Part shown: positions 5,987-22,668 of the stretch, piece after piece
Layout: the number at the start of each line of letters is the position of its first letter
Position numbering within the stretch: position 1 is the first letter of the stretch
Sequence record: PZ166176.1
Origin: a phage
Direction: 5' to 3' (one strand)
DNA length: 64,000 bases
Notes under the pieces: model-generated
Told to the model about the DNA's origin: nothing
The model's input: only the letters and a program-made list of their open reading frames with translations
The model's database searches: none
Made by a program: the position numbers and the translations under genes

Positions 5987-5994
5987 GGGGTAAA

Positions 5995-8148
5995 ATGAAA
6001 CAAGCTATATTTACTGTCACGCGAGACAAGAGAGTAAATGCGAGTTCATTTAACTACACGACTGTTGACGGAACAGCAGTCGCTGGTAGAGATTATATTG
6101 CAAAATCGGGAACACTTGTGTTCCCTGATGATGCGGATTCTGCTACTATTGTGGTTGAAGTATTTGAACGACCAAAGAACTCAATAGATCTTAACTTCTC
6201 CCTCCAAGTTTCAGGGATTAGTCAAAATAACATGATGGTTGAAACGACCATTAATTGTATTATAACTACTATCCAAGAAAATACTACTCCAATAACTTGG
6301 ACTACAAAAGACGTTAAAATGTTCTCTCCTATGTATTGGACAATAGATTCTCAAGCAACGGAAAGTTGTTCTATTGTATCTCATGGAGACTCTTTTACTG
6401 CAAGATTTGTAAACAGAACAACAGCAGGTTTGGCAGGGGTTATCTGGAGCACAGTTGACAAATATGACCATAAAGGTGTTGGGTATTTGCCTCACACAGA
6501 TTTAAGTTCAGAGAAACTTTGGTTTAAAATGGAAATTAGTCAAAACATGCCAGGTTTTAAAGAAGAACCTTTGGTGCCGACTTTGACTGTAACTCTCCTG
6601 GATAAAAGTGTTCATTATGTCAGTTTAGGATTCTACGCTTCAGATATTTCAGAAGATGGTAAAACAGCCACAATAAAGTTAGATTTTGGTAATATCTTTT
6701 CTGGCCCTAATAATGATATTCCTTTGGATATGAGTGCTGTAGATAATATTTTCTTCTCTTTGATTACAGCAAGGTATGAAGAAATAGAAGAGATTATACC
6801 TATTGCCAGTCAAGAGGCTTGGTTTACTTTCACTCTTCTTGAACCTACTTCTGGTTACAGTATGATGAAAGTCAGCAACCTTGTCCAGCCTGAACATGAT
6901 ATTCGCATGTGCACATCTTATGATGATATGTATAACCTGACTCCAGAGAGAGTTATTTATAATACATATGCACTAGGTTATCGTGGAATGATTAACCATT
7001 ACAACGGAATGTCTCACTATTATGAGTTCTCATGGAACGGAACATCTTGGGCTTTAAATAGATCTGTTTTCCTGAATCCGGCTACAGAAGCTTGGCTTAA
7101 CAGTTTCCATTCTATAGCTAATGAAAATGGCTACACAATAATGAACTCTTTGAGTTTTGAGTTGATGAGCACAGTTTGTCCTGTTGAATGGGTCCAGCAT
7201 GATTGGAACGATGCTCTTGCAGCAACAGGGTATAAGCCTCCTAGTTACGTGTTGTCTCCAACTATTGACGAAGGCATGGAATATTTGCAAAATGTTATTA
7301 ACAAAATAGCATCTATTTCTCAAGCTAATAACATTCCAGTCGTAATTCAAATTGGTGAACCTTGGTGGTGGTATAATACAGCAAGTAAAATGCCTTGTAT
7401 ATATGATTACACTACCAAACTGGCATTCAATACAGAAACAGGCTTATTTGCACAAGACGCAGGAACAATAGATAATTATAAAACAGGAACACCATTTGAC
7501 GAATACTATGCATTTTTGTCTCGTAAACTAGGGTTAAGAGTTACAAAGTTTGCAACAGACACCAGAGCAACTTATCCTGGAGCTAAAGTAACATTGCTTC
7601 CGTTCTTACCGTCAATTATTGGCAACGGTTTGATGGAGAAAGTTAACTTCCCGTCTGATTACTACATTCCTGAAGCTTTTGATTTTTACTGTTCAGAGTG
7701 TTACGACTGGCTTCTGGAAGGTAAAATGATGAAAGCATTCGATGCAATTACCATACCACATGAAAAATTAGGTTTTGAATATTCTGATATTCACTATCTT
7801 TCGGGTTTTGTTCCAGATGCTACTCTTGCACCTTTGTATGGCTTCGATCCTGAATCAAACTACCGCACGTATCTTTGGAAAATGATTATAGGTAATATAG
7901 TGTTGAACGCCAATAAGTTCAATGGGCTTACACAATATATATGGGCCTATCCTCAAATAATGCATGATTCCATCACGGTAGTTAATTCTCAATCCCAAGT
8001 TTTCTATATGGGTAATGTGCCTTTGAATTGTTATTTGCAAGATATCACTCTTAAACAAGCAAATGTTGAGATTGCTACCATAAGTGGAATTACATTAGCT
8101 ACTAAATCTGGAGAAGATTTAGTAACAACACAAAAATTTTATATATAG
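5995..8148 (+). CDS. structural protein with N-terminal Calx-beta domain
   Basis: 717 aa; N-terminus TVTRDKRVNASSFNYTTVDGTAVAGRDYIAKSGTLVFPDDADSATIVVEVFERP matches the Calx-beta signature (T-x-DGTA-x-DY...G-x-L-x-F). Confidence 0.55.
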   Translation: MKQAIFTVTRDKRVNASSFNYTTVDGTAVAGRDYIAKSGTLVFPDDADSATIVVEVFERPKNSIDLNFSLQVSGISQNNMMVETTINCIITTIQENTTPITWTTKDVKMFSPMYWTIDSQATESCSIVSHGDSFTARFVNRTTAGLAGVIWSTVDKYDHKGVGYLPHTDLSSEKLWFKMEISQNMPGFKEEPLVPTLTVTLLDKSVHYVSLGFYASDISEDGKTATIKLDFGNIFSGPNNDIPLDMSAVDNIFFSLITARYEEIEEIIPIASQEAWFTFTLLEPTSGYSMMKVSNLVQPEHDIRMCTSYDDMYNLTPERVIYNTYALGYRGMINHYNGMSHYYEFSWNGTSWALNRSVFLNPATEAWLNSFHSIANENGYTIMNSLSFELMSTVCPVEWVQHDWNDALAATGYKPPSYVLSPTIDEGMEYLQNVINKIASISQANNIPVVIQIGEPWWWYNTASKMPCIYDYTTKLAFNTETGLFAQDAGTIDNYKTGTPFDEYYAFLSRKLGLRVTKFATDTRATYPGAKVTLLPFLPSIIGNGLMEKVNFPSDYYIPEAFDFYCSECYDWLLEGKMMKAFDAITIPHEKLGFEYSDIHYLSGFVPDATLAPLYGFDPESNYRTYLWKMIIGNIVLNANKFNGLTQYIWAYPQIMHDSITVVNSQSQVFYMGNVPLNCYLQDITLKQANVEIATISGITLATKSGEDLVTTQKFYI

Positions 8149-8156
8149 GAGTAAAA

Positions 8157-10103
8157 ATGTCAACTACAATTACTAATTTACCCGAAACATCAAAAGTTAA
8201 TGGTTCTGATTACCTAGTTTTAGACCAATCTGATAAGACCGTTAAAAGCACAGTTTCTAACTTTCTTGCTGACACTGGGGTGGTTTTAGCCACCCAGTTG
8301 AAAGATACAAATGGAGCAGATTTAATACAATCCTCAAATGGTAATACTGTTCAGGAAGAGTTGAATAACAATCTTCTTAATGATCGTGAACAGTGGTGTC
8401 GTAGTCTTGCTGAGGCAGGGTTAACCCTTGTCAACGGTAGCTTTGAAGAAGGCGCTACATTAAATAATAAGACCGATGCTGTTTGGTATATTGCAGGCGG
8501 TCAGTGTTATTCATGGGATGGTGCACTACCTAAAGAAGTTCCAAATGGCTCAACTCCAGAAACATCTGGTGGTGTTGGTCTGGGTGCGTGGGTTAGTGTT
8601 GGTGATGCATCGTTGCGCACTGAACTTTCCTCTTTATCAGGGGCTAATCTTGTTGGGTATAGCGTTTCCATGAGATATAATGAAGAGACTGTTGGGTGGA
8701 TGTTAGAAAATCTCACCGACAGAGCTTTATCATCAAGTGATTTCCCTGGAGACGATGCCGGAGAACAAATAAATAACGGTCTTGATTTTTTACGCTCCCA
8801 GAATGAGAAATATAGACAAGGGGGAACATTAAACCTACCCAGAGAAACACTGAATGTATCGACACCGATTACACTCGACAGAACTCCAAGCGGTGCGCCA
8901 GATGAAAATGATGAATATACAATATCTGGCTCTGGAAAAGGAGGGACAGTACTGATAGCGGGTAATAGCTTCCCACCAGATAAAGCGGTTTTAACAACTA
9001 ACTCTGCTAATGGTAATGCGGTTCAAGGTTTTAAATTAAAAGACTTTTCCATCAGGGGTGGCAAAAACGGACTTCGTATTGAAACCGCATCAAGAAGTAT
9101 AATAGACAGCATCAAAGTTTCGGGATCAGGTTCGGACGGTATTTATGTAGGTAATAGCTGGGTCAATCTTTATAGTCAGGTGCTTGTAGATTCAAGCGGT
9201 GGTAATGGAATTACGTTCGATAATAGTCTACAAAAAACAAGCACAACAGTACTTTCAGGATACCAGTTAAAAAACAAGGGGTCAGGTTGGGATTTTGGTT
9301 TTATGAACTATTCAGTGGCAATTGCCACTGCTTCAGATCAGAACTCACAACATGGCTATAAAATATCAAGGTCGGAAGGATTTGTTCTTATATCTCCGGG
9401 AGCGGAAAGCAACGGGGGTGCTGGTATATTAGCTGAGGCATCAACATCTTTAGGGGAAAACAAGAGCGTCCTAATTCAAGGAGCTTTTTGCCACAATAAT
9501 AATAAGATAGGTACTTACGCGAATCTTTTATATGCGGTGAGTACTGCTAACACAATAAACCGTGTAAAAATAACAGATAGCACAGCACATTCCAGCCCTG
9601 TAGGTTCTCCAGATGTTGTTGCTGATGGGAACGAATGCGTTGTCACAATAGATAACTGCGTACTACCTAACGGCTGGGAATCCAGAAATGGTGGATATAT
9701 TGACTGGGTTCATCATACCCTATATGTACAGAAACCAGGAATCACAGGGGCAACAGCCATATGCAACTTAAGAGGAACTCAGGGGCACGGTAGAAATGAA
9801 GCTTCTGCTTCTGATAGTTTTGCTGGGGAAGTAACCATAGTAGCAAGTCCATTAGCGCCTTCAACAGCGACAAGACGACTTGCTATCTATAAACTTTTTA
9901 TTTGCGTAGCAGCGGATACCGGCGTTCAATGCGAAGTGATAAAACAATTGGGTTACGTATCTGGAAATGTTCCAGGTTCGCCAAGTTTCACATGGAGCAT
10001 CGGTTCATCTCATGAATTGATAGCAACCCCAATAGGGTCTACAGCCGGAACGTTCTATTTTGAAATCACAACGGATTCGCAAGTTGTAGCCCTCAAAAGA
10101 TAA
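8157..10103 (+). CDS. tailspike/tail fibre protein with right-handed beta-helix (depolymerase-like)
   Basis: 648 aa; N-terminal fibre-attachment motif (PNGSTPETSGGVGLGAWVSVGD) shared with ORFs 14789 and 17904; Gly/Asn/Ser-rich beta-helix-like repeats; hairpin terminator follows. Confidence 0.6.
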   Translation: MSTTITNLPETSKVNGSDYLVLDQSDKTVKSTVSNFLADTGVVLATQLKDTNGADLIQSSNGNTVQEELNNNLLNDREQWCRSLAEAGLTLVNGSFEEGATLNNKTDAVWYIAGGQCYSWDGALPKEVPNGSTPETSGGVGLGAWVSVGDASLRTELSSLSGANLVGYSVSMRYNEETVGWMLENLTDRALSSSDFPGDDAGEQINNGLDFLRSQNEKYRQGGTLNLPRETLNVSTPITLDRTPSGAPDENDEYTISGSGKGGTVLIAGNSFPPDKAVLTTNSANGNAVQGFKLKDFSIRGGKNGLRIETASRSIIDSIKVSGSGSDGIYVGNSWVNLYSQVLVDSSGGNGITFDNSLQKTSTTVLSGYQLKNKGSGWDFGFMNYSVAIATASDQNSQHGYKISRSEGFVLISPGAESNGGAGILAEASTSLGENKSVLIQGAFCHNNNKIGTYANLLYAVSTANTINRVKITDSTAHSSPVGSPDVVADGNECVVTIDNCVLPNGWESRNGGYIDWVHHTLYVQKPGITGATAICNLRGTQGHGRNEASASDSFAGEVTIVASPLAPSTATRRLAIYKLFICVAADTGVQCEVIKQLGYVSGNVPGSPSFTWSIGSSHELIATPIGSTAGTFYFEITTDSQVVALKR

Positions 10104-10106
10104 AAA

Positions 10107-10133
10107 CAACCCCGCTTCGGCGGGGGGTTCTTA
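10107..10133 (+). terminator. rho-independent terminator candidate
   Basis: CCCCGC-TTCG-GCGGGG hairpin followed by TTCTT, just after the stop at 10103. Confidence 0.55.
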
Positions 10134-10152
10134 GAAAAACAAAGAGGTACTT

Positions 10153-10464
10153 ATGAACGAGATGTTCTCACAAGGTGGTAAAGGTTCAACTGGAATCTTA
10201 ACCAATAAACAAGCAGTAGCCCGTCACTTTGGAGTTAAACAATCTGAGGTTGTTTACTTCTCAGTTGGTGCACTGCTTGATGGGTACAAAGTTATCTATG
10301 ATAAGGAGACGCAAAGGGCGTATTCCCTACCTGCTGATATTGCCCCAGGTACTATTGCCATTAGTCTTAGTGCTGCCGGAGTATTAGTTCACTCTGCGGG
10401 TAATGTGGACCTTGGGGAATTAGCTGTATCTCGTGATTTAAAAAGTAATGAGAACGCACTATGA
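10153..10464 (+). CDS. hypothetical protein
   Basis: 103 aa ORF with RBS, between tailspike and baseplate genes. Confidence 0.4.
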   Translation: MNEMFSQGGKGSTGILTNKQAVARHFGVKQSEVVYFSVGALLDGYKVIYDKETQRAYSLPADIAPGTIAISLSAAGVLVHSAGNVDLGELAVSRDLKSNENAL

Positions 10465-10703
10465 GAAAATTTTTAATAGGTATGTTCTGTACATATCCTG
10501 ATAATAAAGTCAGTTCTACGAAAGTCTGGAACGCTGTAGGCATGTCGGTTATGACAGGCATGTTTATCTTTTTAGGAATAGAAAAAGAAATTCCTGAATG
10601 GATGGGTTGGGCTTTTGTTTTCATGATAACTCCTTCTCGCCTCATGAAAAATCTTATTGATTTACGCTGGGGCAGATCACAATCTACCAAAGAGGATGAC
10701 TAA
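10461..10703 (+). CDS. hypothetical small membrane protein
   Basis: 80 aa with a hydrophobic segment (GMSVMTGMFIFLGI); ATGA overlap with the upstream ORF. Confidence 0.4.
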   Translation: MRKFLIGMFCTYPDNKVSSTKVWNAVGMSVMTGMFIFLGIEKEIPEWMGWAFVFMITPSRLMKNLIDLRWGRSQSTKEDD

Positions 10704-12190
10704 TGGACGAATATGGTTTGACAGATGCGGGATTTGTAATCCCGACTTTTGACGATGTTTTAAACAACTACATGACAGCAGTAAAAAACACATTTGGTGC
10801 AGATGCAGCCACTTCGGAAGATACTGTGATCGGACAACTGTTTAGAATAATTGCATACACAGATTACACATTGTGGGAAGGTATGCAAGGTGTTTACAAT
10901 ACTCAAACACTGGATGGTGCAGAAGGTATTTATCTTGATGAAATCTTTTCTAAACGCGGTTTCTATCGAGCAGGGGCAGCAGCAAGTACAGGTTATGCAT
11001 ATGTTAAGAGTAATAACAAAGCAGCTTGGACTTATGAGCTAGGCACGGATATTTACTTCAACTCTGATAGTGATATGAACTACTATGTTAGCACACCAAC
11101 TATGTTGAATGCTAAGATTGCAGCTTATCAAATCTCTCGTGCTAATGCAACTGCTACAGGTGTTCCAAATATTACTTTTTATGCACAAAGTGCGGTGGAT
11201 GGAGGACTAAACAGTAAAACACTTGCACCTGGTTCTTCTACATTTATAACCGATCTTGAAACTTTTATCAAGGCGAATTTAACAGAAGCTGATCGTAGTC
11301 TTGTATTTTCTGATTCAGGTAACTTATCAATTGGTTTTACTTCTTTAACCAGCGATACTCCAGTGGGACTAGTAACTCCTATCAAATTTTATGCCAGTGT
11401 TCCAGTTGGAACCAAATGGAGTGAAATTCCAGTAGTTGCAGCAGAGAAAGGATACAATCCTGTTGGTGTGGAGTCTATTACAGGGATATCTTCTACCTTT
11501 ACAGGTTATCTTGACAGTGGTAACTTTTATTCATTTTCTCCTGGTCGGGATGTTGAGACAGATGCAGAATTCCGCTCTCGTTTCAATGACAACGTTGATG
11601 AAGCTAACGCAGGGACACGAGCAGCTATTGTGAAAGCTCTGTTACTTACAGATGGTGTTACTAAGGTGAAGATTTATGATAACCCTACGTTACATGATCA
11701 AGAACACGCTCCAGCTATGACTTTCCAGACTATAGTTTATGGTGGCAGTGCAGAAGAAATTGCAAATGTTATCTATAAAACCAAACCAATCAACACTTTG
11801 ACACACGGAACAACTAACATAACAGTTACAACAGAAGATGGAGGACAAGAAATTATTCGCTTCTCTCCTGGTGCTTCTGCTATGTATTCCGTAAAACTTG
11901 TTTATCAAACTGTCAACGGAACAACTTTAAGTGGAACAGAAAAACAAAACATCGTAGAAGCTTTACAAAACCTGCAAGCTTACTTTGAGTTAGGTTCTTC
12001 AGTAACGAACGATCAAATCAAAGGTGTTATTTATGCAGCACTTGCTTTTGGACGCTTGACTTCTCTTCGTGTTTATGTTAAACTTAATACTGAGGATGAC
12101 AGTAAATATACAGAGAATAATATAGTTCCTGCTTATAATGTTGTCCCTTCTTTTGACCTTGATAACATTTCTTACGAGTATGGAGTGTAA
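10703..12190 (+). CDS. baseplate wedge protein, gpJ / gp6-like
   Basis: 495 aa; N-terminal region and gene order (followed by a gpI-like protein and a fibre) resemble the baseplate J family. Confidence 0.45.
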   Translation: MDEYGLTDAGFVIPTFDDVLNNYMTAVKNTFGADAATSEDTVIGQLFRIIAYTDYTLWEGMQGVYNTQTLDGAEGIYLDEIFSKRGFYRAGAAASTGYAYVKSNNKAAWTYELGTDIYFNSDSDMNYYVSTPTMLNAKIAAYQISRANATATGVPNITFYAQSAVDGGLNSKTLAPGSSTFITDLETFIKANLTEADRSLVFSDSGNLSIGFTSLTSDTPVGLVTPIKFYASVPVGTKWSEIPVVAAEKGYNPVGVESITGISSTFTGYLDSGNFYSFSPGRDVETDAEFRSRFNDNVDEANAGTRAAIVKALLLTDGVTKVKIYDNPTLHDQEHAPAMTFQTIVYGGSAEEIANVIYKTKPINTLTHGTTNITVTTEDGGQEIIRFSPGASAMYSVKLVYQTVNGTTLSGTEKQNIVEALQNLQAYFELGSSVTNDQIKGVIYAALAFGRLTSLRVYVKLNTEDDSKYTENNIVPAYNVVPSFDLDNISYEYGV

Positions 12191-12192
12191 AA

Positions 12193-12822
12193 ATGGCAGT
12201 GAGTGTTGACCATGTAACAACTTGGGCCAGTATCAATGAAGATGTTAAAAACCTTCTGATTGAAGATTTTAAATCTTCTCCTAACATTGTCAAGCTCCTC
12301 TACATCGTATCCAGTGAAAAGCAAAAGATAGATCAGGCAATGATCTATCTTGCTAAACACCGCTTGATCTCTACAGCCACAGGCAAATACCTAGATATTC
12401 TAGGGGAAGAAATGGGGATCGAACGTAATGGCTCTGATGATGAAGAGTATAGAACAATATTAAAAATCAGGGCTTACCGCGTAGCCTCATCGGGGACTCG
12501 TGGTGACATAATTGATATCTTCGCCCGTTTCACAGGAACAGAGCGTGAAACGCTTAATACTTACGTAGGTTTGAATAAAACCTTTGATGTGTTTTTCTAC
12601 AACCTGTGTCTTCAATCTGATCAAGCTTTAGAGCAGTTGCTAAGTGTTTTCCCTATTATTAGTAGCTACCGTCTTGGAGCAAAAGCAGGATCAGCTTTTG
12701 GTTTTAGTTCTTATTATGCTACCAAACCGCCTCATGGTATTGGTGGTTTAGGTTCCCTGTACATGGAATCTACTGGGGATGAAACAGGACGCATGTGTAC
12801 GCTTCTCAAGCAAATAGATTAA
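12193..12822 (+). CDS. baseplate/tail protein, P2 gpI-like
   Basis: 209 aa; GKYLDILGEEMGIERNGSDDEEYRTILKIRAYRVASSGT resembles the conserved core of tail protein I family; sits directly after the J-like gene. Confidence 0.4.
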   Translation: MAVSVDHVTTWASINEDVKNLLIEDFKSSPNIVKLLYIVSSEKQKIDQAMIYLAKHRLISTATGKYLDILGEEMGIERNGSDDEEYRTILKIRAYRVASSGTRGDIIDIFARFTGTERETLNTYVGLNKTFDVFFYNLCLQSDQALEQLLSVFPIISSYRLGAKAGSAFGFSSYYATKPPHGIGGLGSLYMESTGDETGRMCTLLKQID

Positions 12823-12831
12823 GGAGTTTAA

Positions 12832-13893
12832 ATGGCGAAGCCAATATATTATCCTGACTGGGCTACACAAACTGTAACGCTCCCAGGAACTTTAAACACA
12901 AACAAAATTAGACCTAAAGAAACCATCCGCACAGTTGGTATGGATTATGGTCAAATCATGACTTGCGAAGAAATGAACTGGATTCTTAATAATATCGGTT
13001 TATGGATTCGCTATTTGGTGGATGACTTTCTTCCAACTTTGCCTGATACTTACTTGCCTTTAGTGGGAACTAAGATTACAATGGCTGGTGACGCTACTGG
13101 TGAGGCTACTTGGAATGGTAACAAAGAAGTTACTTTATCTATCCAGGTTCAAGATAACAGTCATAATCACTTGTCGGCAAACATTACAGATGCCACTAGT
13201 TCAACAGTAACACCAAACGTGCTGGTAAAACGTGATGCGGGTGGTGCTATTTATGGTGGCGATGTTTATGTTAACGGTACTTCCACAACAGATCCTGCAA
13301 CACTGTTCTTCAAAAACTTTGCAGGACAAACAAATGGTGAGATTTCTGCCGAGTATCAAAGCGGAGGTCAGCTTTATATTTATCGTAGAAATCCTAGCAC
13401 AGGTAGTGTATCGGCAGGTGTTCGTTTATATGATGCAGGTTATGTTCTAATAGATAATCCAAGATCAAACAGTGGACAAGATACTTCTAACGGAAATGCT
13501 TTAGTTCGTTTAGATTATCTGAACTCTCGTTTGACTTCCCTTCAGAACACATTGCAGACGAATATTAACACTGTTCAAAATAACTTGAATAATGTTAACA
13601 GCAACCTTTCTTCCCGTATAAACAATGTAGAAAGTAATCATCAAAGTCAGATTACAAATAACTACAATTATGCTAACGGAACCTTTGTAAGAGATATTCG
13701 TTATACTAGCCAAGGTGTGTATTATCCACCAGGGAACGAGGTTTCTTGGACTTATATCTGTTCTTCTGGTTATGTTCTTTCTGGTATTATCGTACAGGAA
13801 ACAGGACGTAGTTCTGCGGATAACATCGGTGGGGTTTATTTCAAACGCCTCCAGCGCAACGTTAACGGAAACTGGTACGATATCGGAGGCTAG
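12832..13893 (+). CDS. tail fibre protein with Asn-rich coiled-coil
   Basis: 353 aa; heptad-like segment LDYLNSRLTSLQNTLQTNINTVQNNLNNVNSNLSSRINNVESN. Confidence 0.5.
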   Translation: MAKPIYYPDWATQTVTLPGTLNTNKIRPKETIRTVGMDYGQIMTCEEMNWILNNIGLWIRYLVDDFLPTLPDTYLPLVGTKITMAGDATGEATWNGNKEVTLSIQVQDNSHNHLSANITDATSSTVTPNVLVKRDAGGAIYGGDVYVNGTSTTDPATLFFKNFAGQTNGEISAEYQSGGQLYIYRRNPSTGSVSAGVRLYDAGYVLIDNPRSNSGQDTSNGNALVRLDYLNSRLTSLQNTLQTNINTVQNNLNNVNSNLSSRINNVESNHQSQITNNYNYANGTFVRDIRYTSQGVYYPPGNEVSWTYICSSGYVLSGIIVQETGRSSADNIGGVYFKRLQRNVNGNWYDIGG

Positions 13894-13894
13894 A

Positions 13895-14440
13895 ATGAGA
13901 TTTACAAATTTTAAAAGATATATTCCCGAAGATCCCGAACTAAAAGAATTGGTAGAAGTAGAGAACATTCTTTTTCTTCGTTGCGATCAAGGTTACGATT
14001 GGTATGATTTACGTAGCACAGAATTCAATAACGATAAAATGAAAGTCGTTTTTGACGATCAAAATCGTATTGTGTTTTGGAATACTGATCCTACACTACT
14101 TTGCCCTGAAGATCTTTCTATAGCACAAGTAGACTTTAATATAGATACTTTTGAGGATATTAGGAACAAGGTTCTGGATTTAGAAACCTTAACTCTTAAG
14201 GATAAAGAGTATTCCCGTGAAGAGTTGATGACACAAGCTAGTGCAAAAATTCGCTCTTTACAAGAAACAGCGGTAGCACTTATAACACCTTTACAGTATG
14301 CTAAAGATTTAGAAATGGCTACTGAAGACGAATTAGCTTATCTTAAAAATCTTCAAGTTTATGTAGTTAAACTAAATCGTGTTCCGCTTCAAAAAGACTA
14401 TCCTTACGCTATAGATTGGCCTACATTACCGACAGAATAA
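13895..14440 (+). CDS. putative tail fibre assembly protein / chaperone
   Basis: Start moved to the ATG right after the upstream stop (track start 13715 overlaps the fibre gene); position and size fit a Tfa-like chaperone. Confidence 0.4.
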   Translation: MRFTNFKRYIPEDPELKELVEVENILFLRCDQGYDWYDLRSTEFNNDKMKVVFDDQNRIVFWNTDPTLLCPEDLSIAQVDFNIDTFEDIRNKVLDLETLTLKDKEYSREELMTQASAKIRSLQETAVALITPLQYAKDLEMATEDELAYLKNLQVYVVKLNRVPLQKDYPYAIDWPTLPTE

Positions 14441-14449
14441 GGGATCACT

Positions 14450-14785
14450 ATGGAATTTCAAGAAGCATGGGGACTTGCAAAGGATGCAATAATCCCTTTA
14501 ATCGGAGTCATCTGGTTCTTTTTCAAACAAAAAATGGATAAATTCGGCTCTGATCTTGAGGAAATGGAGGAGAAAAGTCGAGAGCTAGAGAAGAAGTTGG
14601 TCTTTGTTGAATCAACTTATGCAACTAAAGCCGAACTTACCCAGATGCTAAATCAAATTAACTCTACATTAATGGCAAATAATAACACCCTTGAGCAAAA
14701 AATTGAAAAGATTATGGACCTCAAGAATGCGACTATCCAAATGATGCTAGATGACATAGTTAAACGTACACAGAATAAGGGGTAA
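14450..14785 (+). CDS. membrane-anchored coiled-coil protein
   Basis: 111 aa; N-terminal hydrophobic helix (AIIPLIGVIWFFF) then a charged coiled-coil. Confidence 0.4.
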   Translation: MEFQEAWGLAKDAIIPLIGVIWFFFKQKMDKFGSDLEEMEEKSRELEKKLVFVESTYATKAELTQMLNQINSTLMANNNTLEQKIEKIMDLKNATIQMMLDDIVKRTQNKG

Positions 14786-14788
14786 TTA

Positions 14789-17700
14789 ATGGCAACATTC
14801 CCAACATATCCAGCAACGTCTCTCGAACAGGGCGTAGACCTGGTTATTTTCTCATCTAACCAACTCCATGATGTTATTAATGGAAGTGCTACAGAGAGTA
14901 TTGAAACAGAATCAGGGTTGATACCAACCCTGAGAAAAGCCCTTGTTGACAACTTTTTCTTTAAAAGCCCATTGGATTGGGCGCAAGGCACAAACGAAAC
15001 AGTTTTTAACCAACTTCGTTATTTCCAGAATGGAGTATTGAGCGGTTATTACTATGCCCCTAACGCTACATTGGTTAACCCAATCCCTATGCAAGGGACT
15101 CCAGTAGGAGATAACAACTGGGTATTGTGGGGACTGAAGACAGAACAATTGGCAACAGAAGTCACCCCTTGGGTATATTCTGGTGCAACTGGTTATGAAA
15201 CAGTAATTAGTCCTCCTTACATCTTTGATAGTGCTATTGTTACGATCAATGGTGTTATTCAGGTTCTGGGGGAAGCTTTCCGTATAGAAGACAGTAAGAT
15301 CATCTTATCTGAACCTTTGGGACACGATCCTGCAACAGGACTGCCAAACAAGCTTTTTGCTTATATTGGTAAAATCGTAGCTTCAGCAGATACAGATCCT
15401 AATCTAGAGAACCGTCTTGTTAGTTTAGAAACAAAAACGGAAGAACTAACAGAAAGCATGGATAAAGTCCCTCTGCAAGCTATTGCTCGTAAGTATGGTT
15501 TGTTAGATGATGAGGTGGCTTACGCAACAGCAGGTCAATCGTTAACAGGGATTAAAGCTCTGTATGATCCGGTAGCACAGTCTTCCTACACATTACCTCC
15601 TAACATCACAGGAACTTTAACATCCTTATCTGTTTCTGGAGTAATGACTTATTCTGGAGGATCTGTAGACCTTTCTGCACTGGCTGTTGAGCGTGGACAG
15701 TTTGTTCATTTGCCTACAAGCTTTGGTAATAACGTAACTCTGACAGCTAAAAATCAGACGATTGGACGTGGTGCTGGTCGTTATCGTTGGGCTGGAAGTT
15801 TACCAAAAAGTATTTTGGCCTCTGATACATTGGAGACAAGCGGAGGATTAGGTCCAAATGCATGGGTTCTGACTAATACAGAAGGACTGTTAACCCCTCG
15901 TGGTGGAACATACAACGATCTATTCGATGTTGTCTACTTGTCAGAATTTGCTAACAATACAACTACCTATACCACACCAGAAGCAGCTTTCCAGGCGGCA
16001 CTGTTAGCAGCAAAAGCTTCGAAAAGCAAGATTCTCGATGCTTACGGTTGCGACATGACTTTCACGACAAGCTCTTTTGATATTCAAGATATCACTTTGC
16101 GTGGTGGTGTGTTCCGTGGTCAACGCGACTATCGTGTGCAGAATGCTACAGTAGAAGGCACAACTTTCCGTAACTCTCGTGTTATGTATTGGGGTGGTGC
16201 TGTGCGCATGTTCGATTGTTTGTGGGACGGTGCTCCTCGCGCAGGTCAAGTTGGTAGCTTGGTATTCCAAGGCAACCCAATATCAGGTACTTTTGAAATT
16301 GATAATTGTACTTTTAAAAACGGGTTATATGGCATTCTTCAACAAGGAACAGGGGAACCAGTAACACGCGGTGTCTTCCGTAACCTTACCTTCATGGACA
16401 TGCAAGGTGATGCAATAGAACTGAACGTCATCAATAAACATTATGACGATGGTTGTGTGATTGAGAATATTTACCTGTCTAATATCGATGGGACTAACGC
16501 TCCTATTCCTCTGTCCAACTGGGGTATCGGTATCGGTGTAGCTGGTAAAGGACCATATGGTTACGGAATCCCTGATGATCAATATTGTAAGAACATTACA
16601 ATTCGTAACGTTTTTGCAAAACGTTGTCGTCAGATTGTCCACGTAGAAGTTGGTCGTAATATCTCTATCGAAAACATTCATGGCGATCCAGATCAAACCG
16701 TATCTGTTGGGACAGGTTTGGCAACTGGCGCAGTTGTAATGTATGGAAGTAAAGACTTTACGATTGATGGTGTTTATGGAGAGCCTAAAACAGACGGTAG
16801 CACACTTGCAAGTAATATCCGTATGATTTACTTGGAGTGGGGAACTAACGCAGTTCTGGATGAAGAGGGTAATCCGGTAGTTCCGGCACAGGGCAGACCT
16901 TCAAACCCATGCTTTAACTATTCTGTTCGTAACATTCACACCAAAACTGGGCGTGTTTTTGCGGGAGTTTCCGCTGGGCCAGGTTATGAAAACAGAGTTA
17001 GCTTTGAAAATATTCGTTGCGCTGCCTTGCAGTTGTTCGGTATAGCTTCTTGGCTTTCAATGTCTAACATCACCTGTAATATCTTCGATTGTGTTGGTCA
17101 ACCTGAATCTGGTCCAGGGACATTTTATGATGGATTCTTCCGTAGAGAAAAATCTGTTCTTGAAATGGTTAACGTAAACTGTTACCCAGATGGCAAGACG
17201 ATGGTTACTGGTCGTCCACAGTGGAGCCGTTGCCGTTACTCGGATATTCATCGTGTCAACTGTAATGTTGAAGCTAATATGTATACCAATATCGCAGGTG
17301 GTATTGGAGCTATTGTAGGGACAACGGGCAAAGTTTATTACTTAGAGCCTAATCCTAGTCGAAACATTGATGGAATGCATTTCCCAACAGGGAAAGAGTT
17401 TGACAAAGGGGATATGATAGTCAAGGCGGATAATACGTTCTTCCTTGTAACAACAAGTGGGGCATATATTCCAGATATCCCAGCTTTCGGTATTCGAGCT
17501 ACACAGGCAGGAGATACCTTCCTGACACAGAACTTGACTCCTAACGGGACAGCAACAAATGCTTCTTGGTTGTATCATTACCCTCTGTCAGCAGGGACAC
17601 GTATCCGTATTCCTGGCGCTGGTGTAGGTGGAGCAGATTTGGACACAGTTATTACTCGTGCACCTTATCAAGATAATGATACGTGGACTAACCCAGTTAA

Positions 17701-17842
17701 AATAGACATTGCAGATCCAATTGTAACGCCTACAAGTGCTGGAGTTAGAATTAAAACCATACCTAATGATTCCAGTAATGTTTCTGTAGGTAATACTGCG
17801 GTTATTCGCCCAACGCCAGTAGTAGATGTGCCAACAACCTAA
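14789..17842 (+). CDS. tailspike protein with beta-helix (candidate polysaccharide depolymerase)
   Basis: 1017 aa; shares the SDTLETSGGLGPNAWV motif with the other fibre genes; long Gly/Asn/Val-rich repeats typical of pectate-lyase-like folds. Confidence 0.6.
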   Translation: MATFPTYPATSLEQGVDLVIFSSNQLHDVINGSATESIETESGLIPTLRKALVDNFFFKSPLDWAQGTNETVFNQLRYFQNGVLSGYYYAPNATLVNPIPMQGTPVGDNNWVLWGLKTEQLATEVTPWVYSGATGYETVISPPYIFDSAIVTINGVIQVLGEAFRIEDSKIILSEPLGHDPATGLPNKLFAYIGKIVASADTDPNLENRLVSLETKTEELTESMDKVPLQAIARKYGLLDDEVAYATAGQSLTGIKALYDPVAQSSYTLPPNITGTLTSLSVSGVMTYSGGSVDLSALAVERGQFVHLPTSFGNNVTLTAKNQTIGRGAGRYRWAGSLPKSILASDTLETSGGLGPNAWVLTNTEGLLTPRGGTYNDLFDVVYLSEFANNTTTYTTPEAAFQAALLAAKASKSKILDAYGCDMTFTTSSFDIQDITLRGGVFRGQRDYRVQNATVEGTTFRNSRVMYWGGAVRMFDCLWDGAPRAGQVGSLVFQGNPISGTFEIDNCTFKNGLYGILQQGTGEPVTRGVFRNLTFMDMQGDAIELNVINKHYDDGCVIENIYLSNIDGTNAPIPLSNWGIGIGVAGKGPYGYGIPDDQYCKNITIRNVFAKRCRQIVHVEVGRNISIENIHGDPDQTVSVGTGLATGAVVMYGSKDFTIDGVYGEPKTDGSTLASNIRMIYLEWGTNAVLDEEGNPVVPAQGRPSNPCFNYSVRNIHTKTGRVFAGVSAGPGYENRVSFENIRCAALQLFGIASWLSMSNITCNIFDCVGQPESGPGTFYDGFFRREKSVLEMVNVNCYPDGKTMVTGRPQWSRCRYSDIHRVNCNVEANMYTNIAGGIGAIVGTTGKVYYLEPNPSRNIDGMHFPTGKEFDKGDMIVKADNTFFLVTTSGAYIPDIPAFGIRATQAGDTFLTQNLTPNGTATNASWLYHYPLSAGTRIRIPGAGVGGADLDTVITRAPYQDNDTWTNPVKIDIADPIVTPTSAGVRIKTIPNDSSNVSVGNTAVIRPTPVVDVPTT

Positions 17843-17848
17843 TGGAAT

Positions 17849-17873
17849 AGAGGGGGATTCCCCCTCTTCTTCC
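17849..17873 (+). terminator. rho-independent terminator candidate
   Basis: AGAGGGGG-ATT-CCCCCTCT hairpin followed by TCTTCC, after the stop at 17842. Confidence 0.5.
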
Positions 17874-17903
17874 AATAGAATGGTCTAATGATAGGAGAGA
17901 TAA

Positions 17904-19928
17904 ATGAATTTAACAAGACCTAATAGTGCGATAGCCGATCTGGTAGAAGCTACTTATCGAAAACGTCGCAGCTTTGAGGCAGGTTTTACATTACGTAATT
18001 CCCGTGAAGTTTTGCTGTTAGCAGCAGAAGGGAATTATTACCAATGGAAAGGAACTTTTCCTAAAGTTGTTCCAGCAAACTCTACGCCAGCCACCACAGG
18101 TGGTATTTCTTCCCTTGCATGGCAAAGTGTTGGGACCGCTGATGATATAGCAATTATCAATGCCAAGTTTACGGCAATGCAGCAACAGATTGATGATCTG
18201 TCGGAAACAATACCTGAAGCTGGTAAATCGGCTTATCAGATCGCACTTGATAATGGTTTTGTTGGAACAGAAGCACAATGGCTTGCTTCTTTGAAAGGGG
18301 ATACTGGTGCTCAACTTAATATTAAAGGATCATTAGCAAACACTAGTGAACTACCATCCACAGGTAACGTTGCAGGGGATGGTTATATCGTAGGTGATGT
18401 AATCTACGCTTGGGATGGTTCTGTTTGGAAACTTATTTCTTCTCTTGGGCCAGAAGGTAAATCAGCTTACGAGGTATGGTTGGCAGATGGTAATACAGGA
18501 TCTGTTTATGATTTTCTTACCTCTATAAAAGGTGATAAAGGTGATGTTGGTCCTACAGGGCCACAGGGAGCACCTGGTGTTAACGCCAACGGTTTTGATT
18601 ATCGTGGGGATTTGCCTTCTACAAGTAACTTACCACAACCAAACTCTGAAAACGTAAGTCAAGCTTATTCTATCAATGGTAATCTTTATGTCTCTAATGG
18701 GACAGCTTGGGTCAACATGGGTAATATTGTTGGTCCTCAAGGTCCACAAGGTGAGGCAGGTAAAGACGGTCTTGATGGAACAGATGGAGATGAAGGGAAG
18801 TCTGCATATCAAAGTTGGCTGGATGCTGGTAATGAAGGGACAGAAGTAGATTTTATTGCCTCACTTAAAGGTCCAAAAGGAGACAAAGGTGATCAAGGAG
18901 AGCGAGGTCCACAAGGTGAACTAGGTCCACAAGGACCAGTGGGTGCAACAGGATCAGGCTTAGATATTATCGGGGTTCTGAACAGTGAAGCTGAACTTCC
19001 TCCTACCGGAGAAGTAGGTGATGCATATAAAATTAATAATGATTTATATGTTTGGGTTCAAGATGCTACGGAATGGATGAATGTTGGCAGTCTTGGAGGA
19101 ACATCAATTACAGCTAAAGGTCATGTTCCGAACAGTGAAGCTCTCCCTGTTTATAATAACTATGGCGATGCCTACTTAACTGAAGACACTAGTAATCTTT
19201 ACATCTATACCTACGATCAAGACACCAATTCCGCATCTTTTGTTGACATGGGAAGTATTAAAGGCGACAAAGGTGAAAAAGGGGATAAAGGAGATAAGGG
19301 TGATCCTGGAACAAACGGAACCAACGGTACTGATGGGACCAACGGTAAGGACGGCGCACAGTGGTTTGTAGCAACAACTAATCCAGTCGCAGGAGACGGT
19401 GTTATCAATGATTACGCCTTCAATACTACCACTGGAGCAGTGTTCAAGAAAACAGATTCTTCTACTTGGACACTTATAGGAACTCTTCCTAGTATACCAG
19501 AAGCACCTCAAGACGGCTTGACGTATGGTCGTTCTGATGGGAACTGGATTGAAATATCAGGATCAGATCCTACGGAAGCTATAACACCAACTAGAGTTAC
19601 AGCAGGTTTCATGGAACTTGAAACAACTACTGCCAACTCTGGAGCATCTTGGACCCCTTCTGGAACTTCCAATATGTATGTTGTTACAGTAACTGACGCT
19701 CTGACAGTTGGAGCATGGCCTGGTGTCACTGGCTCTACAAAGCCTAAAGCGTTTTCAGCAATGATTTATTTGATTCAAGATACAACGGGACACACGGTTA
19801 CACTAGATGCGTCTTATGGAGCACTGAATGATACAGAAATAGCAACTACTGCTAACGCAGTAACAATTTTGCAATTAACGTATCCTGGTGTGGGTAATGT
19901 CGTGGACATGGTTGTTGTAACACGATAA
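17904..19928 (+). CDS. tail fibre protein with phage tail-fibre repeats and collagen-like Gly-X-Y tracts
   Basis: 674 aa; three copies of GKSAY-x-WL-x-GN-x-G...SLKG-x-KGD and Gly-X-Y runs (GPQGPQGEAGKDGLDGTDGDEG; GDKGEKGDKGDKGDPGTNGTNGTDGTNGKDG). Confidence 0.7.
   Translation: MNLTRPNSAIADLVEATYRKRRSFEAGFTLRNSREVLLLAAEGNYYQWKGTFPKVVPANSTPATTGGISSLAWQSVGTADDIAIINAKFTAMQQQIDDLSETIPEAGKSAYQIALDNGFVGTEAQWLASLKGDTGAQLNIKGSLANTSELPSTGNVAGDGYIVGDVIYAWDGSVWKLISSLGPEGKSAYEVWLADGNTGSVYDFLTSIKGDKGDVGPTGPQGAPGVNANGFDYRGDLPSTSNLPQPNSENVSQAYSINGNLYVSNGTAWVNMGNIVGPQGPQGEAGKDGLDGTDGDEGKSAYQSWLDAGNEGTEVDFIASLKGPKGDKGDQGERGPQGELGPQGPVGATGSGLDIIGVLNSEAELPPTGEVGDAYKINNDLYVWVQDATEWMNVGSLGGTSITAKGHVPNSEALPVYNNYGDAYLTEDTSNLYIYTYDQDTNSASFVDMGSIKGDKGEKGDKGDKGDPGTNGTNGTDGTNGKDGAQWFVATTNPVAGDGVINDYAFNTTTGAVFKKTDSSTWTLIGTLPSIPEAPQDGLTYGRSDGNWIEISGSDPTEAITPTRVTAGFMELETTTANSGASWTPSGTSNMYVVTVTDALTVGAWPGVTGSTKPKAFSAMIYLIQDTTGHTVTLDASYGALNDTEIATTANAVTILQLTYPGVGNVVDMVVVTR
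18213..19352 (+). repeat. in-frame coding repeats (tail-fibre repeat units and collagen-like triplets)
   Basis: Repeated peptide units seen in the translation of 17904..19928; the antisense ORF 19217..19408 is an artefact of this repeat. Confidence 0.6.
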
Positions 19929-19930
19929 CA

Positions 19931-19958
19931 GAAGCCCCGAAAGGGGCTTTCTTTTTAT
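19931..19958 (+). terminator. rho-independent terminator
   Basis: AAGCCCC-GAAA-GGGGCTT hairpin followed by TCTTTTTAT. Confidence 0.7.
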
Positions 19959-19969
19959 GGAGGGTTTAA

Positions 19970-22642
19970 ATGTTTCCAATTCCAATATTTACTATTATGA
20001 CCAGCACTGGTGTCGTTCCTCTGCCAGCAGGTATTGTTAAAAAAGTAATTACTTTAGATTACCCAGATAATGCTGGTAATTCTAACAGCAGTTTAGCAAT
20101 TTTGCTTAATGATGGTAGATTGTTTACTCAAGGCGCAAACCTCTTTGGTGAGATTGCAGATGGAACTCGTAGTGCACGATTCAATAATTTCCACTTAGCT
20201 TCTACTGTAGTAGCGGATGTGTTTACCGCAGATCGTTGTTTTGTTATTAAAACTAACAGTGGGGGATGGCAATATTCAGGATTGACAGCAGGGTTAGTAG
20301 GATCTATAGCAGCAGGTGGTACGGATGCATGTGTAACTACTTGGACCAGCTTTCCATCTGTAATAACAGGGACTATCTCTTTAGCCAATCTTAAAGAGGT
20401 TAAGGGAGGATATAACAACACTCTCTGGTTAATGAATAGTGGTGTTCTTTATGGATCGGGTCAAAACACAGTAGGTAGTTTAGGTGCAAGCACTACTAAC
20501 GAAGTTTCTACTCCTCGTCAGATAACAAGTTCAGCAGTTGCTTTTGATGCAGGTTACAACCAATGCTCTTATGTCAACAATGTGGGAACCTTGCGTGTTT
20601 GTGGAGCTAGTAAAGGTTTAGCAGGTAATAATAACACAACAACAGCTTTTGTCAATGCCAAGATATCCGCTACTGAAACAGTGTATGTCAAAGATTACAT
20701 CAATACAGTTTCCCAGACAATAGTTGTAGGAGATACCTCCGGTGGCACGGGTACAGTAAACTACTTATATGTCAGGTCTAATACAGAAACAACCTACACT
20801 AAACTGGATACCTTTGCAGCAGGTTTCTCAACATGGAAATTTCCACCAAGCCGCCACTCTTTTTTCGTTGGGATCAACAATTCCTTGTGGGCTATTGGTA
20901 AGAACTACACTGCAAACTTAGGTTTGGGGTATGATTCTGCGAGCGGAGATCCACTCCAAGTGGGAAAACCAGTTAAACCTGAAGGAGTGGGTTCTTGGGA
21001 TATAAACAAGCTCACAAGCGTTCATACGCTGAATATGGATATTACTAACCAATTAGGTTATCAAGGAACCTTTTTCGTTTATAACGGGGATATGTATTAT
21101 TCCGGTATTTGGAAAGATGGGAAAGCCTCGTATCTGTTCAACAGTGGTCTAAATTATAATAAATTCACACCGATAGCAAGCTCTGTGATTACGGGTGATA
21201 TTCTGGCAACTGGTTTAACTACAGATTCTTTAGGAATTTGTATTGTAGGTGGAACTAAACAGTTGACACATTCTGTTAGCCCAGAAGGAGGTAAACTTTT
21301 CAATATTAAATACACTTCTTCTGCCCCTGCAAACATGACAATATCATCCACTGGTTTAATGACTTTCCATGCAGAAGGTGGTTTTGATGCAGGTATGACA
21401 GCCTTAAACGCTGAAGGAACAACTTTATCAGATACCTCTGGAGGATATGCTTCAACATTGAGTGTTTACACCCCTAGCTTATCTGCGATGGATGTAGGAA
21501 CAACACAAACAATGGTAGCAGAAATAACGCCAACAGGAGCAGCAAGCTTACCTGGTATGGTTGTTGAGTATACAACTACAGATCCTAATGTTGCTACAGT
21601 AGATCCTACAACTGGTGTAATAACTGGTGTTGGTGATGGTGGTTGTAGAATTGGTTGCACAGCTACGTATCAAGGTGTTGTTACCGCTTCTGATAGTTCT
21701 TATTTAACGGTGAACGCTGTTGCGGGAAAGGAGTTAGCTCCATCTCCGAGTAGTAGTTTAACGGTTCTAAACGGATATTTCAACCACTCGGCAGATGGGG
21801 CAATTACGTTCCCAATTTTATCGGGTACTGTCACACCAGCTAACTTTGTAGTTAAGGTGGATGACGTTGTAATACCTTCAAATAAAGTAATATTTAGAAA
21901 TAAAGCTTTCTCTACAGTGGATAGTTATCCAGCAGGAGAATATAGACTGGCTATTGAATTTGCAAGTGCTTCAGTAGTGAATAGTGTTGATGTGTCTATG
22001 GAAGCAAATCCAGATCTTTTAGAATTATGGGGCGGCAACAGAATTGGTTATTCTACAAGCCCAGCCTCACAATTCTTAAAAGGTTGTGCTAACTTAAGAC
22101 GAATAACTTCTGATTGTTTTAGTAACACATCTTACACCGGAACATCTATAAGTGGTATCTTCTCTGGCTGTACAAGTTTGACAGCTATCCCTGAAGGATT
22201 ATTCAGTGATGCTTTATTTCCTTCAATGACAACAATGTCAAGCACGTTTGAAGGTTGTACATCTTTAACATCTATTCCTTCAGATTTATTTAAGAATCTA
22301 TCAAAAGTTACAAGATATTCTTACACCTTTAAAGATTGCACCTCTCTTGCAGAAGTTCCAGCAGGAATGTTTGATAATATTCCAACGAAAGTGACCTCTT
22401 TAACAGCTACATTCCAAGGTTGTTTAGCACTTACAGATTTTAATAAAATCTTTAATGACAACCCAGGGTTAACGGTTTGTGGTCAACGTGGAGCATTATC
22501 TTCTTTCTTTAGTGGATGCACAAATCTTACAGGAACAGGAGTAACATTAACAAGCACATTAGGTGGAGCAGCTAATAGTTACCTATTCAGGTATTGCACA
22601 AAACTTTCTGATTATAACAATATTCCTTCGGGTTATAAATAA
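19970..22642 (+). CDS. distal tail fibre / receptor-binding protein with Big_2-like domain and BspA-type leucine-rich repeats
   Basis: 890 aa; Big_2-like segment (MDVGTTQTMVAEITPTGAASLPGMVVEYTTTDPNVATVDPTTGVITGVGDGG); C-terminal repeats of F-x-GCTSLT-x-IP-x-x-LF. Confidence 0.55.
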   Translation: MFPIPIFTIMTSTGVVPLPAGIVKKVITLDYPDNAGNSNSSLAILLNDGRLFTQGANLFGEIADGTRSARFNNFHLASTVVADVFTADRCFVIKTNSGGWQYSGLTAGLVGSIAAGGTDACVTTWTSFPSVITGTISLANLKEVKGGYNNTLWLMNSGVLYGSGQNTVGSLGASTTNEVSTPRQITSSAVAFDAGYNQCSYVNNVGTLRVCGASKGLAGNNNTTTAFVNAKISATETVYVKDYINTVSQTIVVGDTSGGTGTVNYLYVRSNTETTYTKLDTFAAGFSTWKFPPSRHSFFVGINNSLWAIGKNYTANLGLGYDSASGDPLQVGKPVKPEGVGSWDINKLTSVHTLNMDITNQLGYQGTFFVYNGDMYYSGIWKDGKASYLFNSGLNYNKFTPIASSVITGDILATGLTTDSLGICIVGGTKQLTHSVSPEGGKLFNIKYTSSAPANMTISSTGLMTFHAEGGFDAGMTALNAEGTTLSDTSGGYASTLSVYTPSLSAMDVGTTQTMVAEITPTGAASLPGMVVEYTTTDPNVATVDPTTGVITGVGDGGCRIGCTATYQGVVTASDSSYLTVNAVAGKELAPSPSSSLTVLNGYFNHSADGAITFPILSGTVTPANFVVKVDDVVIPSNKVIFRNKAFSTVDSYPAGEYRLAIEFASASVVNSVDVSMEANPDLLELWGGNRIGYSTSPASQFLKGCANLRRITSDCFSNTSYTGTSISGIFSGCTSLTAIPEGLFSDALFPSMTTMSSTFEGCTSLTSIPSDLFKNLSKVTRYSYTFKDCTSLAEVPAGMFDNIPTKVTSLTATFQGCLALTDFNKIFNDNPGLTVCGQRGALSSFFSGCTNLTGTGVTLTSTLGGAANSYLFRYCTKLSDYNNIPSGYK

Positions 22643-22643
22643 G

Positions 22644-22668
22644 AAAAGGAGCCAAATGGCTCCTTTCT
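22644..22668. terminator. bidirectional terminator at the convergence of the + and - blocks
   Basis: AAAGGAGCC-AAAT-GGCTCCTTT hairpin with T-rich flank on the + strand, between convergent genes ending at 22642 and 22670. Confidence 0.65.

Follow-up and report, generated by a model that had tools for sequence, protein, structure and literature searches.

Can one short protein segment, present in three neighbouring receptor-binding genes of a phage, be the adaptor by which all three proteins are mounted on the baseplate? The question is raised by positions 8157-19928 of a 64,000-nucleotide stretch of phage DNA (record PZ166176.1; the whole stretch is hereafter the window), where three open reading frames (ORFs), named here by their first positions as ORF 8157, ORF 14789 and ORF 17904, each encode a related segment. 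A preliminary description had interpreted this segment as a shared N-terminal module for attaching alternative receptor-binding proteins. The segment was confirmed in all three ORFs as the head sub-domain TD2, but its settings point to a different role. We consider it fairly probable that TD2 serves this cluster as a portable junction and homology arm, with each protein mounted separately and ORF 17904 most likely on ORF 14789.

Judged by nucleotide identity and synteny with type members, the source is an Escherichia coli myophage of the genus Phapecoctavirus (Stephanstirmvirinae), and the locus is the receptor-binding-protein and baseplate cluster of such a phage. Positions 8157-19928 matched 226 phage records, 46 of which cover at least 80% of the region at 96-99% nucleotide identity; the closest (dw-ec, Ro121c4YLVW, ETEC-TG and others) have 96-98% identity over 81-87% of it. 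The locus is built throughout from known kinds of parts, namely a Pfam domain, beta-helix tailspikes and a multivalent adsorption apparatus, and public databases already contain proteins 99-100% identical to the products of ORFs 14789 and 17904. For phi92-like phages, such a multivalent apparatus was reportedly described by Schwarzer et al. in 2012 (J Virol 86:10384, cited in PMC8594841). A broad host range and multiple receptor-binding proteins that can be exchanged, both proposed from the sequence beforehand, are documented for this phage group, and the phi92-like apparatus has been called a 'Swiss army knife' (PMC8594841, PMC10844046).

One head sub-domain in three settings

The shared segment of about 60 residues is Pfam PF18668 (Tail_spike_N, 'Tail spike TSP1/Gp66 receptor binding N-terminal domain'), which corresponds to D2/TD2 of the tailspike heads of phages CBA120 and G7C. 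All three copies scored above the gathering cut-off of 25 bits, and did so again when the test was repeated on isolated segments: residues 92-150 of ORF 8157 (73.7 bits, E 1.3e-20), residues 302-361 of ORF 14789 (37.6 bits, E 2.4e-9) and residues 12-77 of ORF 17904 (70.5 bits, E 1.3e-19). Pairwise Smith-Waterman alignments recovered the same segment each time and placed it above chance, with z-scores against 200 shuffles of 8.7 for ORFs 8157 and 14789, 9.4 for ORFs 8157 and 17904, and 3.5 for ORFs 14789 and 17904. The literal motif that had been proposed is an exact fit in ORF 8157 and an approximate one in the other two, and the label of N-terminal module suits only ORF 17904, as the segment lies 91 residues into ORF 8157 and 301 residues into ORF 14789. 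A hidden Markov model of the three copies, run over all six frames of the window, found no fourth copy; the window holds exactly three. TD2 is thus an already catalogued domain, and its recurrence here is real but ordinary.

The crystal structure of CBA120 TSP1 has a head made of D1 (residues 12-96) and D2 (residues 97-154), each a helix followed by a beta-sandwich (PMC3966878). These are TD1 and TD2 in the naming of Plattner et al., and the head region of CBA120 tailspikes has been tied to tailspike assembly (PMC7506556, PMC8432352). TD1 occurs at two sites in the window, inside ORF 14789 and alone in a 103-residue ORF (hereafter the orphan TD1 gene). The tandem TD1-TD2 is found only in ORF 14789, where it is internal, and ORFs 8157 and 17904 lack TD1, so that none of the three has a head of the CBA120/G7C type with TD1 directly before TD2 at the N-terminus. 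The window nonetheless resembles the TSP1-TSP4 system of CBA120 (Kuttervirus) in having the same TD1, the same TD2 (PF18668), and conserved N-termini with exchangeable bodies.

ORF 8157 occupies a hypervariable tailspike slot, the position of phi92 gp143, and consists of a slot-specific N-terminal region, TD2, a neck, a beta-helix body and a C-terminal domain. Its N-terminal part of about 167 residues was 76-90% identical across some 30 phapecoctavirus-type spikes with differing bodies, among which Pfam recognized beta-helix, pectate lyase, sialidase BNR, GDPD, GDSL lipase and peptidase S74 domains. No Pfam match was found in the body of ORF 8157 itself. The nearest proteins to this body among 5.8 billion (P0001 and P0002) were 72-73% identical, and the sole match among phage records, LHE287, reached 67.6%. 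With at most 73% identity to anything found, the body is by this comparison a new tailspike allele, not seen before; compared with phi92, it is a different beta-helix allele instead of an endosialidase. The AlphaFold2 monomer model (predicted local distance difference test score, pLDDT, 74.4) contained a beta-helix, its top Foldseek matches being CBA120 TSP4, TSP3 and TSP1 and the Sf6 and HK620 tailspikes (E 2e-13 to 1e-7), and the C-terminal domain resembles that of the tailspike of Acinetobacter phage P1 (6e1r, E 5e-9).

The product of ORF 14789 is homologous to phi92 gp150, a colanidase, and has the build of a primary 'anchor-branch' receptor-binding protein; public databases already contain an essentially identical protein (P0121; 100% and 99.7% in two comparisons). 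Homology to the phi92 gp150 family covers the catalytic body (residues 426-1000) in both sequence and fold: this body matched the colanidase tailspike structure 6e0v at E 1.1e-78 by sequence, and 6e0v was also the best Foldseek match of the AlphaFold2 monomer model (pLDDT 73.2; E 2e-38, 30% identity, TM-score 0.66 on the target). The protein also matched phrog_6117, 'colanic acid degradation', at E 1.7e-282, and its internal head matched 4qnl, 4oj5 and 5w6f (E 1e-28 to 1e-30). Structure prediction therefore bore out the beta-helix bodies that had been expected in the 648- and 1017-residue proteins, both of which matched tailspikes. These bodies had further been called rich in glycine and asparagine, which holds for glycine (11.5-11.7%, against 8.1% in neighbouring structural proteins) but not for asparagine (7.3% against 6.9%).

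ORF 17904, a homologue of phi92 gp151, encodes a collagen-like trimeric fibre instead of a spike and starts directly with TD2. A stop codon immediately ahead of its ATG leaves no room for a longer N-terminus. Its TD2 has a family-specific basic patch (YRKRRSF), and this N-terminal part is conserved in 27 homologues with varied distal parts. The distal tip is of the type found at the C-terminus of PhiTE gp241 (9cuy_g residues 679-790, E 1.1e-7). Inside the fibre, just before this tip domain, lies an element that resembles the foldon of T4 fibritin (IPEAPQDGLTYGRSDGNWIEI, residues 527-552, window 19482-19559). It matched foldon-containing PDB chains at E 0.003-0.007 (1v1h at 0.003), and homologues carry Pfam Fibritin_C.

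TD2 between anchors and exchangeable bodies

Mosaic breakpoints in the tailspike slot fall on either side of TD2. Among homologues of ORF 8157, the shared N-terminal part stops at residues 148-207, mostly at 159-175, just past TD2 and the neck, while a shared body starts either ahead of TD2 (residues 81-95) or just past it (residues 156-171). Similar bodies also follow N-termini of very different kinds, among them P22-type head-binding domains and TD1-TD2 heads. The same edges appear in DNA identity to the close relative Ro121c4YLVW, which is 95-100% up to position 8376 (100% in most windows), falls to 65-88% over the TD2-coding stretch, is absent from 8617 to 10122, is patchy at 80-98% in the orphan TD1 gene, and returns to 97-100%, almost uniformly 100%, from 10483. 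TD2 is dispensable in close relatives of ORF 14789 as well: the 803-806-residue proteins P0131-P0135 keep the N-terminal part of about 200 residues and a homologous beta-helix body without TD1-TD2, so that the TD1-TD2 insert sets ORF 14789 apart from these gp150-type relatives. About 50 proteins share just residues 1-196 of ORF 14789 with other bodies behind them. Because relatives of ORF 14789 do without TD2 and mosaic breakpoints flank it, TD2 behaves, on these comparisons, as a portable junction between anchor and receptor-binding part and not as a common adaptor.

The TD2-coding DNA may itself promote the exchange. The stretch in ORF 8157 matched, at 60-90% identity, 591 records from phages of many different genera, and because TD2 DNA is about 80% conserved across unrelated phages, we infer that it could act as a homology arm for the swapping of bodies. 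On this reading, the exchangeable host-range cassette is the ORF 8157 body, which begins where TD2 ends and extends to the hairpin ahead of the orphan TD1 gene. Its limits, approximately 8616 (the TD2 end) and the hairpin at approximately 10122, delimit the Phapecoctavirus cassette precisely, which should be useful for host-range engineering.

We regard it as unlikely that TD2 is instead a common adaptor that inserts all three proteins, interchangeably, into the same kind of baseplate socket, as the preliminary description had it. The segment is homologous in the three ORFs, it lies within the head region described as an assembly part of CBA120 tailspikes (PMC7506556), and in ORF 17904 it is the sole N-terminal element, all of which would suit a socket of this kind. 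Its placement does not, since TD2 starts at residue 92, 302 or 12, behind mutually unrelated upstream regions, every one of which is conserved in its particular slot, and the TD2-less P0131-P0135 argue against it too. CBA120 TSP2 has no D2, and docking there has been assigned to the TD1 and XD domains (PMC7506556, PMC8432352). Sf11 gp13 is held in situ by its N-terminal helices (4-59), not by its TD2 at residues 65-125 (PMC12724387). A docking role for TD2 is plausible only in ORF 17904, where it forms the N-terminus.

ORF 8157, on the preferred reading of separate mounting, would be held by its own slot-specific N-terminal part of about 90 residues, probably on scaffold proteins encoded just upstream. 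A search for PDB relatives of the upstream 958-residue protein, considered as a partner for this N-terminus, found none. A T4 gp10-like domain was also considered as its partner, but the search of every frame of the window found none besides that of ORF 14789.

The cassette is followed by a GC-rich hairpin that aligns with, and is homologous to, the 16-bp repeat flanking gp63.1 of phage G7C, and then by the orphan TD1 gene, which encodes the first head sub-domain only. Its product is 86% identical to the first 95 residues of CBA120 TSP1 and G7C gp63.1, and the gene with its upstream hairpin and ribosome-binding site has 82-83% DNA identity to G7C and Kuttervirus 5' ends. The junction of body, GC hairpin, ribosome-binding site and TD1 after ORF 8157 is nearly identical in DNA to that of G7C gp66/gp63.1. 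Unlike G7C, ORF 8157 has no detectable gp10-like domain, and the gene after the hairpin ends after TD1 at 103 residues; because it stops there, it provides no second spike. In G7C (locus L010), gp63.1 is bracketed by two copies of the GC-rich hairpin repeat, at 4001-4016 and 6627-6642, in the manner of a discrete cassette.

By DNA identity, the variable cassette ends on the right at the orphan TD1 gene. This gene may be a scar of recombination that has been kept, or may encode a working cap or adaptor; its product could also be a second, cargo-less occupant of a platform such as the gp10-like domain of ORF 14789. A decaying pseudogene does not fit: the ORF is intact in Phapecoctavirus and Justusliebigvirus, the ratio of nonsynonymous to synonymous substitution rates (dN/dS) across the two genera is 0.24-0.33, and its stop overlaps the start of the next gene. 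Some phages contain shorter remnants. The gene is absent from ETEC-TG and phAPEC8, which excludes a split head in which orphan TD1 and the TD2-first ORF 17904 would be two halves, as ETEC-TG has a homologue of ORF 17904 of the same length and in the same position.

A candidate branched fibre

An anchor of the kind found in the PhiTE long tail fibre would attach ORF 14789 directly to the baseplate. This anchor (residues 11-127) matched residues 14-132 of PDB chain 9cuy_g at E 2.7e-19, and Foldseek gave 39-41% identity to the in-situ model, in which the PhiTE long-tail-fibre N-terminus binds wedge 2A and the sheath initiator (PMC11972413). The anchor is followed by what is predicted to be a gp10-like (XD-type) docking domain, then by the internal TD1-TD2 head and a beta-helix that probably degrades colanic acid, the substrate being that of its homologues. 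A profile of residues 105-205 matched the K1 depolymerase 9k4a (2.9e-12), the tail fibres gp47 and gp9 (8vbx and 23sh, 1.7e-7), 8es4 (4.4e-7), the tail adaptor 7y22 (1.8e-5) and residues 19-72 of CBA120 TSP2 (7e-4). ORF 14789 thus has what distinguishes anchor-branch systems, a gp10-like domain in an anchored primary protein. Gp10-like domains are documented docking sites in G7C, K1-5 and CBA120 (PMC6872550), and docking of this anchor-branch kind has precedents in G7C gp66/gp63.1 and in the CBA120 XD3-TD1 contact (PMC6872550, PMC8432352).

In order to see which genes accompany such a domain, we compared ten loci encoding PF26208 (PhiTE-type anchor) proteins, namely the window and loci L003, L005 and L011-L017. 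In all six loci whose PF26208 protein contains a gp10-like domain (the window, L003, L005, L013, L014 and L015), the gene immediately downstream encodes a TD2-first or TD1-first protein, TD2-first in five and TD1-first in L015. None of the four loci without the domain (L011, L012, L016 and L017) has a TD2- or TD1-first gene. L015 belongs to one lineage with L011 and L016 and differs from them in exactly the gp10-like domain and the TD-first downstream gene. Single-chain PF26208 fibres that include an ORF 17904-like part, the shaft in P0266 and the C-terminal tip in PhiTE gp241, contain neither a gp10-like domain nor TD2. The PF26208 protein of L013 (7287-7985) has just 232 residues and lacks a body: a coiled coil accompanies the PhiTE-type anchor and the gp10-like domain, and there is nothing else. 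It is 58.5% identical to residues 1-227 of ORF 14789, a TD2-first fibre gene lies 15 nucleotides downstream, and it seems to represent the primary receptor-binding protein in a natural form reduced to the adaptor. The TD2-first fibres share their N-terminal peptide and a basic RKRR patch, and the gp10-like segment has a net charge of -6.

This gene-neighbourhood comparison suggests that ORF 17904 docks on ORF 14789 by its N-terminal TD2. We infer that the contact is most likely non-covalent and made with the gp10-like domain, which would give a branched fibre. As an account of one whole appendage, with ORF 14789 anchored as in PhiTE on the wedge and sheath initiator and its gp10-like domain (residues 125-180) carrying ORF 17904 by TD2, the proposal is tentative, and we hold it at somewhat below even odds. 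Pairing between the TD2 copies of ORFs 14789 and 17904 was also considered and is ruled out, as the upstream PF26208 protein has no TD2 in L003, L005, L013 and L014 and a TD2-first fibre still follows. No terminator-like site was found between ORF 14789 and ORF 17904.

The arrangement combines features of several known systems. The order of domains in ORF 14789 (anchor, gp10-like domain, TD1, TD2, beta-helix) is that of CBA120 TSP4 and also the architecture of G7C gp66, with which it shares the anchor-branch logic. It differs from TSP4 in its PhiTE-type anchor and in having one detectable gp10-like domain, and the presumed secondary protein, ORF 17904, is a TD2-first collagen-like fibre, unlike the TD1-first spikes of CBA120. 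The Klebsiella anchor-branch systems (KP32-type) likewise pair a first protein bearing an anchor and a gp10-like domain with an adjacent second protein that has a short conserved N-terminus; their anchors are different, and here the baseplate is that of a myovirus and docking is deduced from comparative genomics. PhiTE gp241 (PDB 9cuy) is related at its N-terminus to residues 11-127 of ORF 14789 and at its C-terminus to residues 559-671 of ORF 17904. It has both ends on one polypeptide with no gp10-like domain and no TD2, whereas here the ends are split over two adjacent genes. Phi92 belongs to the same subfamily and has the same gene order, in which ORF 14789 corresponds to gp150, ORF 17904 is of the gp151 type and ORF 8157 fills the gp143 slot.

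Fibre II of phi92 is reported to join fibre I at the base of the latter, and no confident assignment was made for either fibre (PMC13450770). The anchor-branch reading offers a concrete, testable assignment for the side fibres left unidentified in that 2026 cryo-electron microscopy study (PMC13450770). If it is true, the proteins that form fibre II and the fibre I base of phi92-type phages would be assigned, and this would be the first case of TD2 instead of TD1 as the docking head.

Several observations weigh against separate mounting with ORF 17904 on ORF 14789. Docking of TD2 on a gp10-like domain is deduced from comparative genomics, over ten loci that are not fully independent, and the docking sub-domain in CBA120 is TD1 (PMC8432352). 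The 2026 phi92 study could not fit models of gp150 or gp151 into fibre II, and it ascribes the tip of fibre I to gp143 (PMC13450770). For the N-terminus of ORF 8157, no PDB relatives of residues 1-94 were found, and residues 1-56 have pLDDT below 50 in the AlphaFold2 model. Finally, D2 of CBA120 TSP1 is chitin-binding-domain-like and superposes on the chitin-binding domain of a Bacillus circulans chitinase with a root-mean-square deviation of 2.1 A over 38 residues (PMC3966878).

This last likeness, together with the Pfam family name 'receptor binding N-terminal domain', leads to the view that TD2 is an accessory carbohydrate-binding module (CBM5/12-like) for surface glycans, shared since all three proteins work on polysaccharide-coated cells. 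We rate this as slightly less likely even than the common adaptor. The authors of the structure remark that polysaccharide binding has yet to be shown for any head domain (PMC3966878), TD2 gave no match to any Pfam carbohydrate-binding-module family even at E 10, the domain occupies the end nearer the virion, a long way from the substrate groove, and it is missing in close relatives with the same enzyme body. Recent intragenomic duplication, or a chance or compositional similarity of no functional meaning, is very improbable: the weakest pair (ORFs 14789 and 17904) does have a z-score of only 3.5, but each copy passes the curated Pfam cut-off on its own, the three-gene arrangement is conserved across the genus, and the copies are not recent duplicates because they are no closer to each other (31-47% identity) than to TD2 of unrelated phages (up to 58%).

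Gene order and neighbouring genes

Annotated relatives have the same gene order as the window: a non-contractile-sheath-like protein, the tailspike, a 103-residue 'tail protein', a membrane protein, two wedge proteins and a short tail fibre, continuing with a fibre assembly protein, a lipoprotein, the 'colanic acid degradation' protein, a tail fibre and a tail protein. The wedge proteins correspond to ORFs 10703 and 12193 of the window. The features discussed here are listed in Table 1.

Table 1 Positions of the three receptor-binding genes, their domains and associated elements in the window
Feature	Position	Strand	Description
ORF 8157	8157-10103	+	648 residues
TD2 of ORF 8157	8430-8606	+	PF18668, residues 92-150
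Variable receptor-binding body of ORF 8157	8664-10088	+	Right-handed beta-helix (about residues 170-550) and C-terminal domain (residues 553-644)
GC-rich hairpin CCCCGCTTCGGCGGGG	10110-10125		Between ORF 8157 and the orphan TD1 gene
Orphan TD1 gene	10153-10464	+	103 residues; first head sub-domain only, no TD2, no body
ORF 14789	14789-17842	+	1017 residues
Predicted baseplate anchor of ORF 14789	14819-15169	+	Residues 11-127; Pfam PF26208; homologous to the N-terminus of PhiTE long tail fibre gp241
T4 gp10-like (XD-type) domain of ORF 14789	15161-15328	+	About residues 125-180; candidate docking platform for a second receptor-binding protein
Internal head of ORF 14789	15476-15895	+	TD1 residues 230-302, TD2 residues 302-369
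Beta-helix colanidase body of ORF 14789	16064-17788	+	Residues 426-1000
ORF 17904	17904-19928	+	674 residues
TD2 of ORF 17904	17937-18134	+	Residues 12-77; only the conserved peptide LTRPNSAIAD ahead
Foldon-like element and distal tip of ORF 17904	19482-19916	+	Residues 527-552 fibritin foldon-like; residues 559-671 tip, Pfam PF26209
Terminator-like hairpin	19931-19950	+	After ORF 17904

ORF 8157 and the orphan TD1 gene belong to a first fibre module (genes for proteins of 157, 958, 717, 648 and 103 residues; window 2637-10464) that lies between a presumed sheath-initiator gene and a small membrane-protein gene. The presumed sheath-initiator gene (window 2014-2637) was assigned from its position and has no Pfam match. 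The module is missing from related phages of about 135-155 kb (L003, L005, L013 and L014), in which its two flanking genes adjoin; this suggests that it is an accessory insertion in Stephanstirmvirinae. Its 717-residue protein (window 5995-8148, plus strand) contains a Calx-beta domain and the N-terminal and TIM-barrel domains of the phage N4 non-contractile tail sheath/gp64 family, matching PDB 9lc0 at E 7.5e-30 and 1.4e-12. Labelled 'colanic acid-degrading' in older records, it looks like a further glycan-active or receptor-binding part of the module.

Downstream of ORF 17904, the window encodes an 890-residue protein (19970-22642, plus strand) with an RCC1-like beta-propeller, a Big_2 domain and C-terminal leucine-rich-type repeats (FSGCTSLT...), and without TD2. 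It is conserved downstream of the fibre in relatives (L005) and may be a further adhesin. A bidirectional terminator follows at 22645-22666, where the GC skew switches sign, and directly after it lies a 230-residue ORF on the minus strand (22670-23362) ending in a Cys/His-rich motif that, by eye alone, resembles that of HNH endonucleases.

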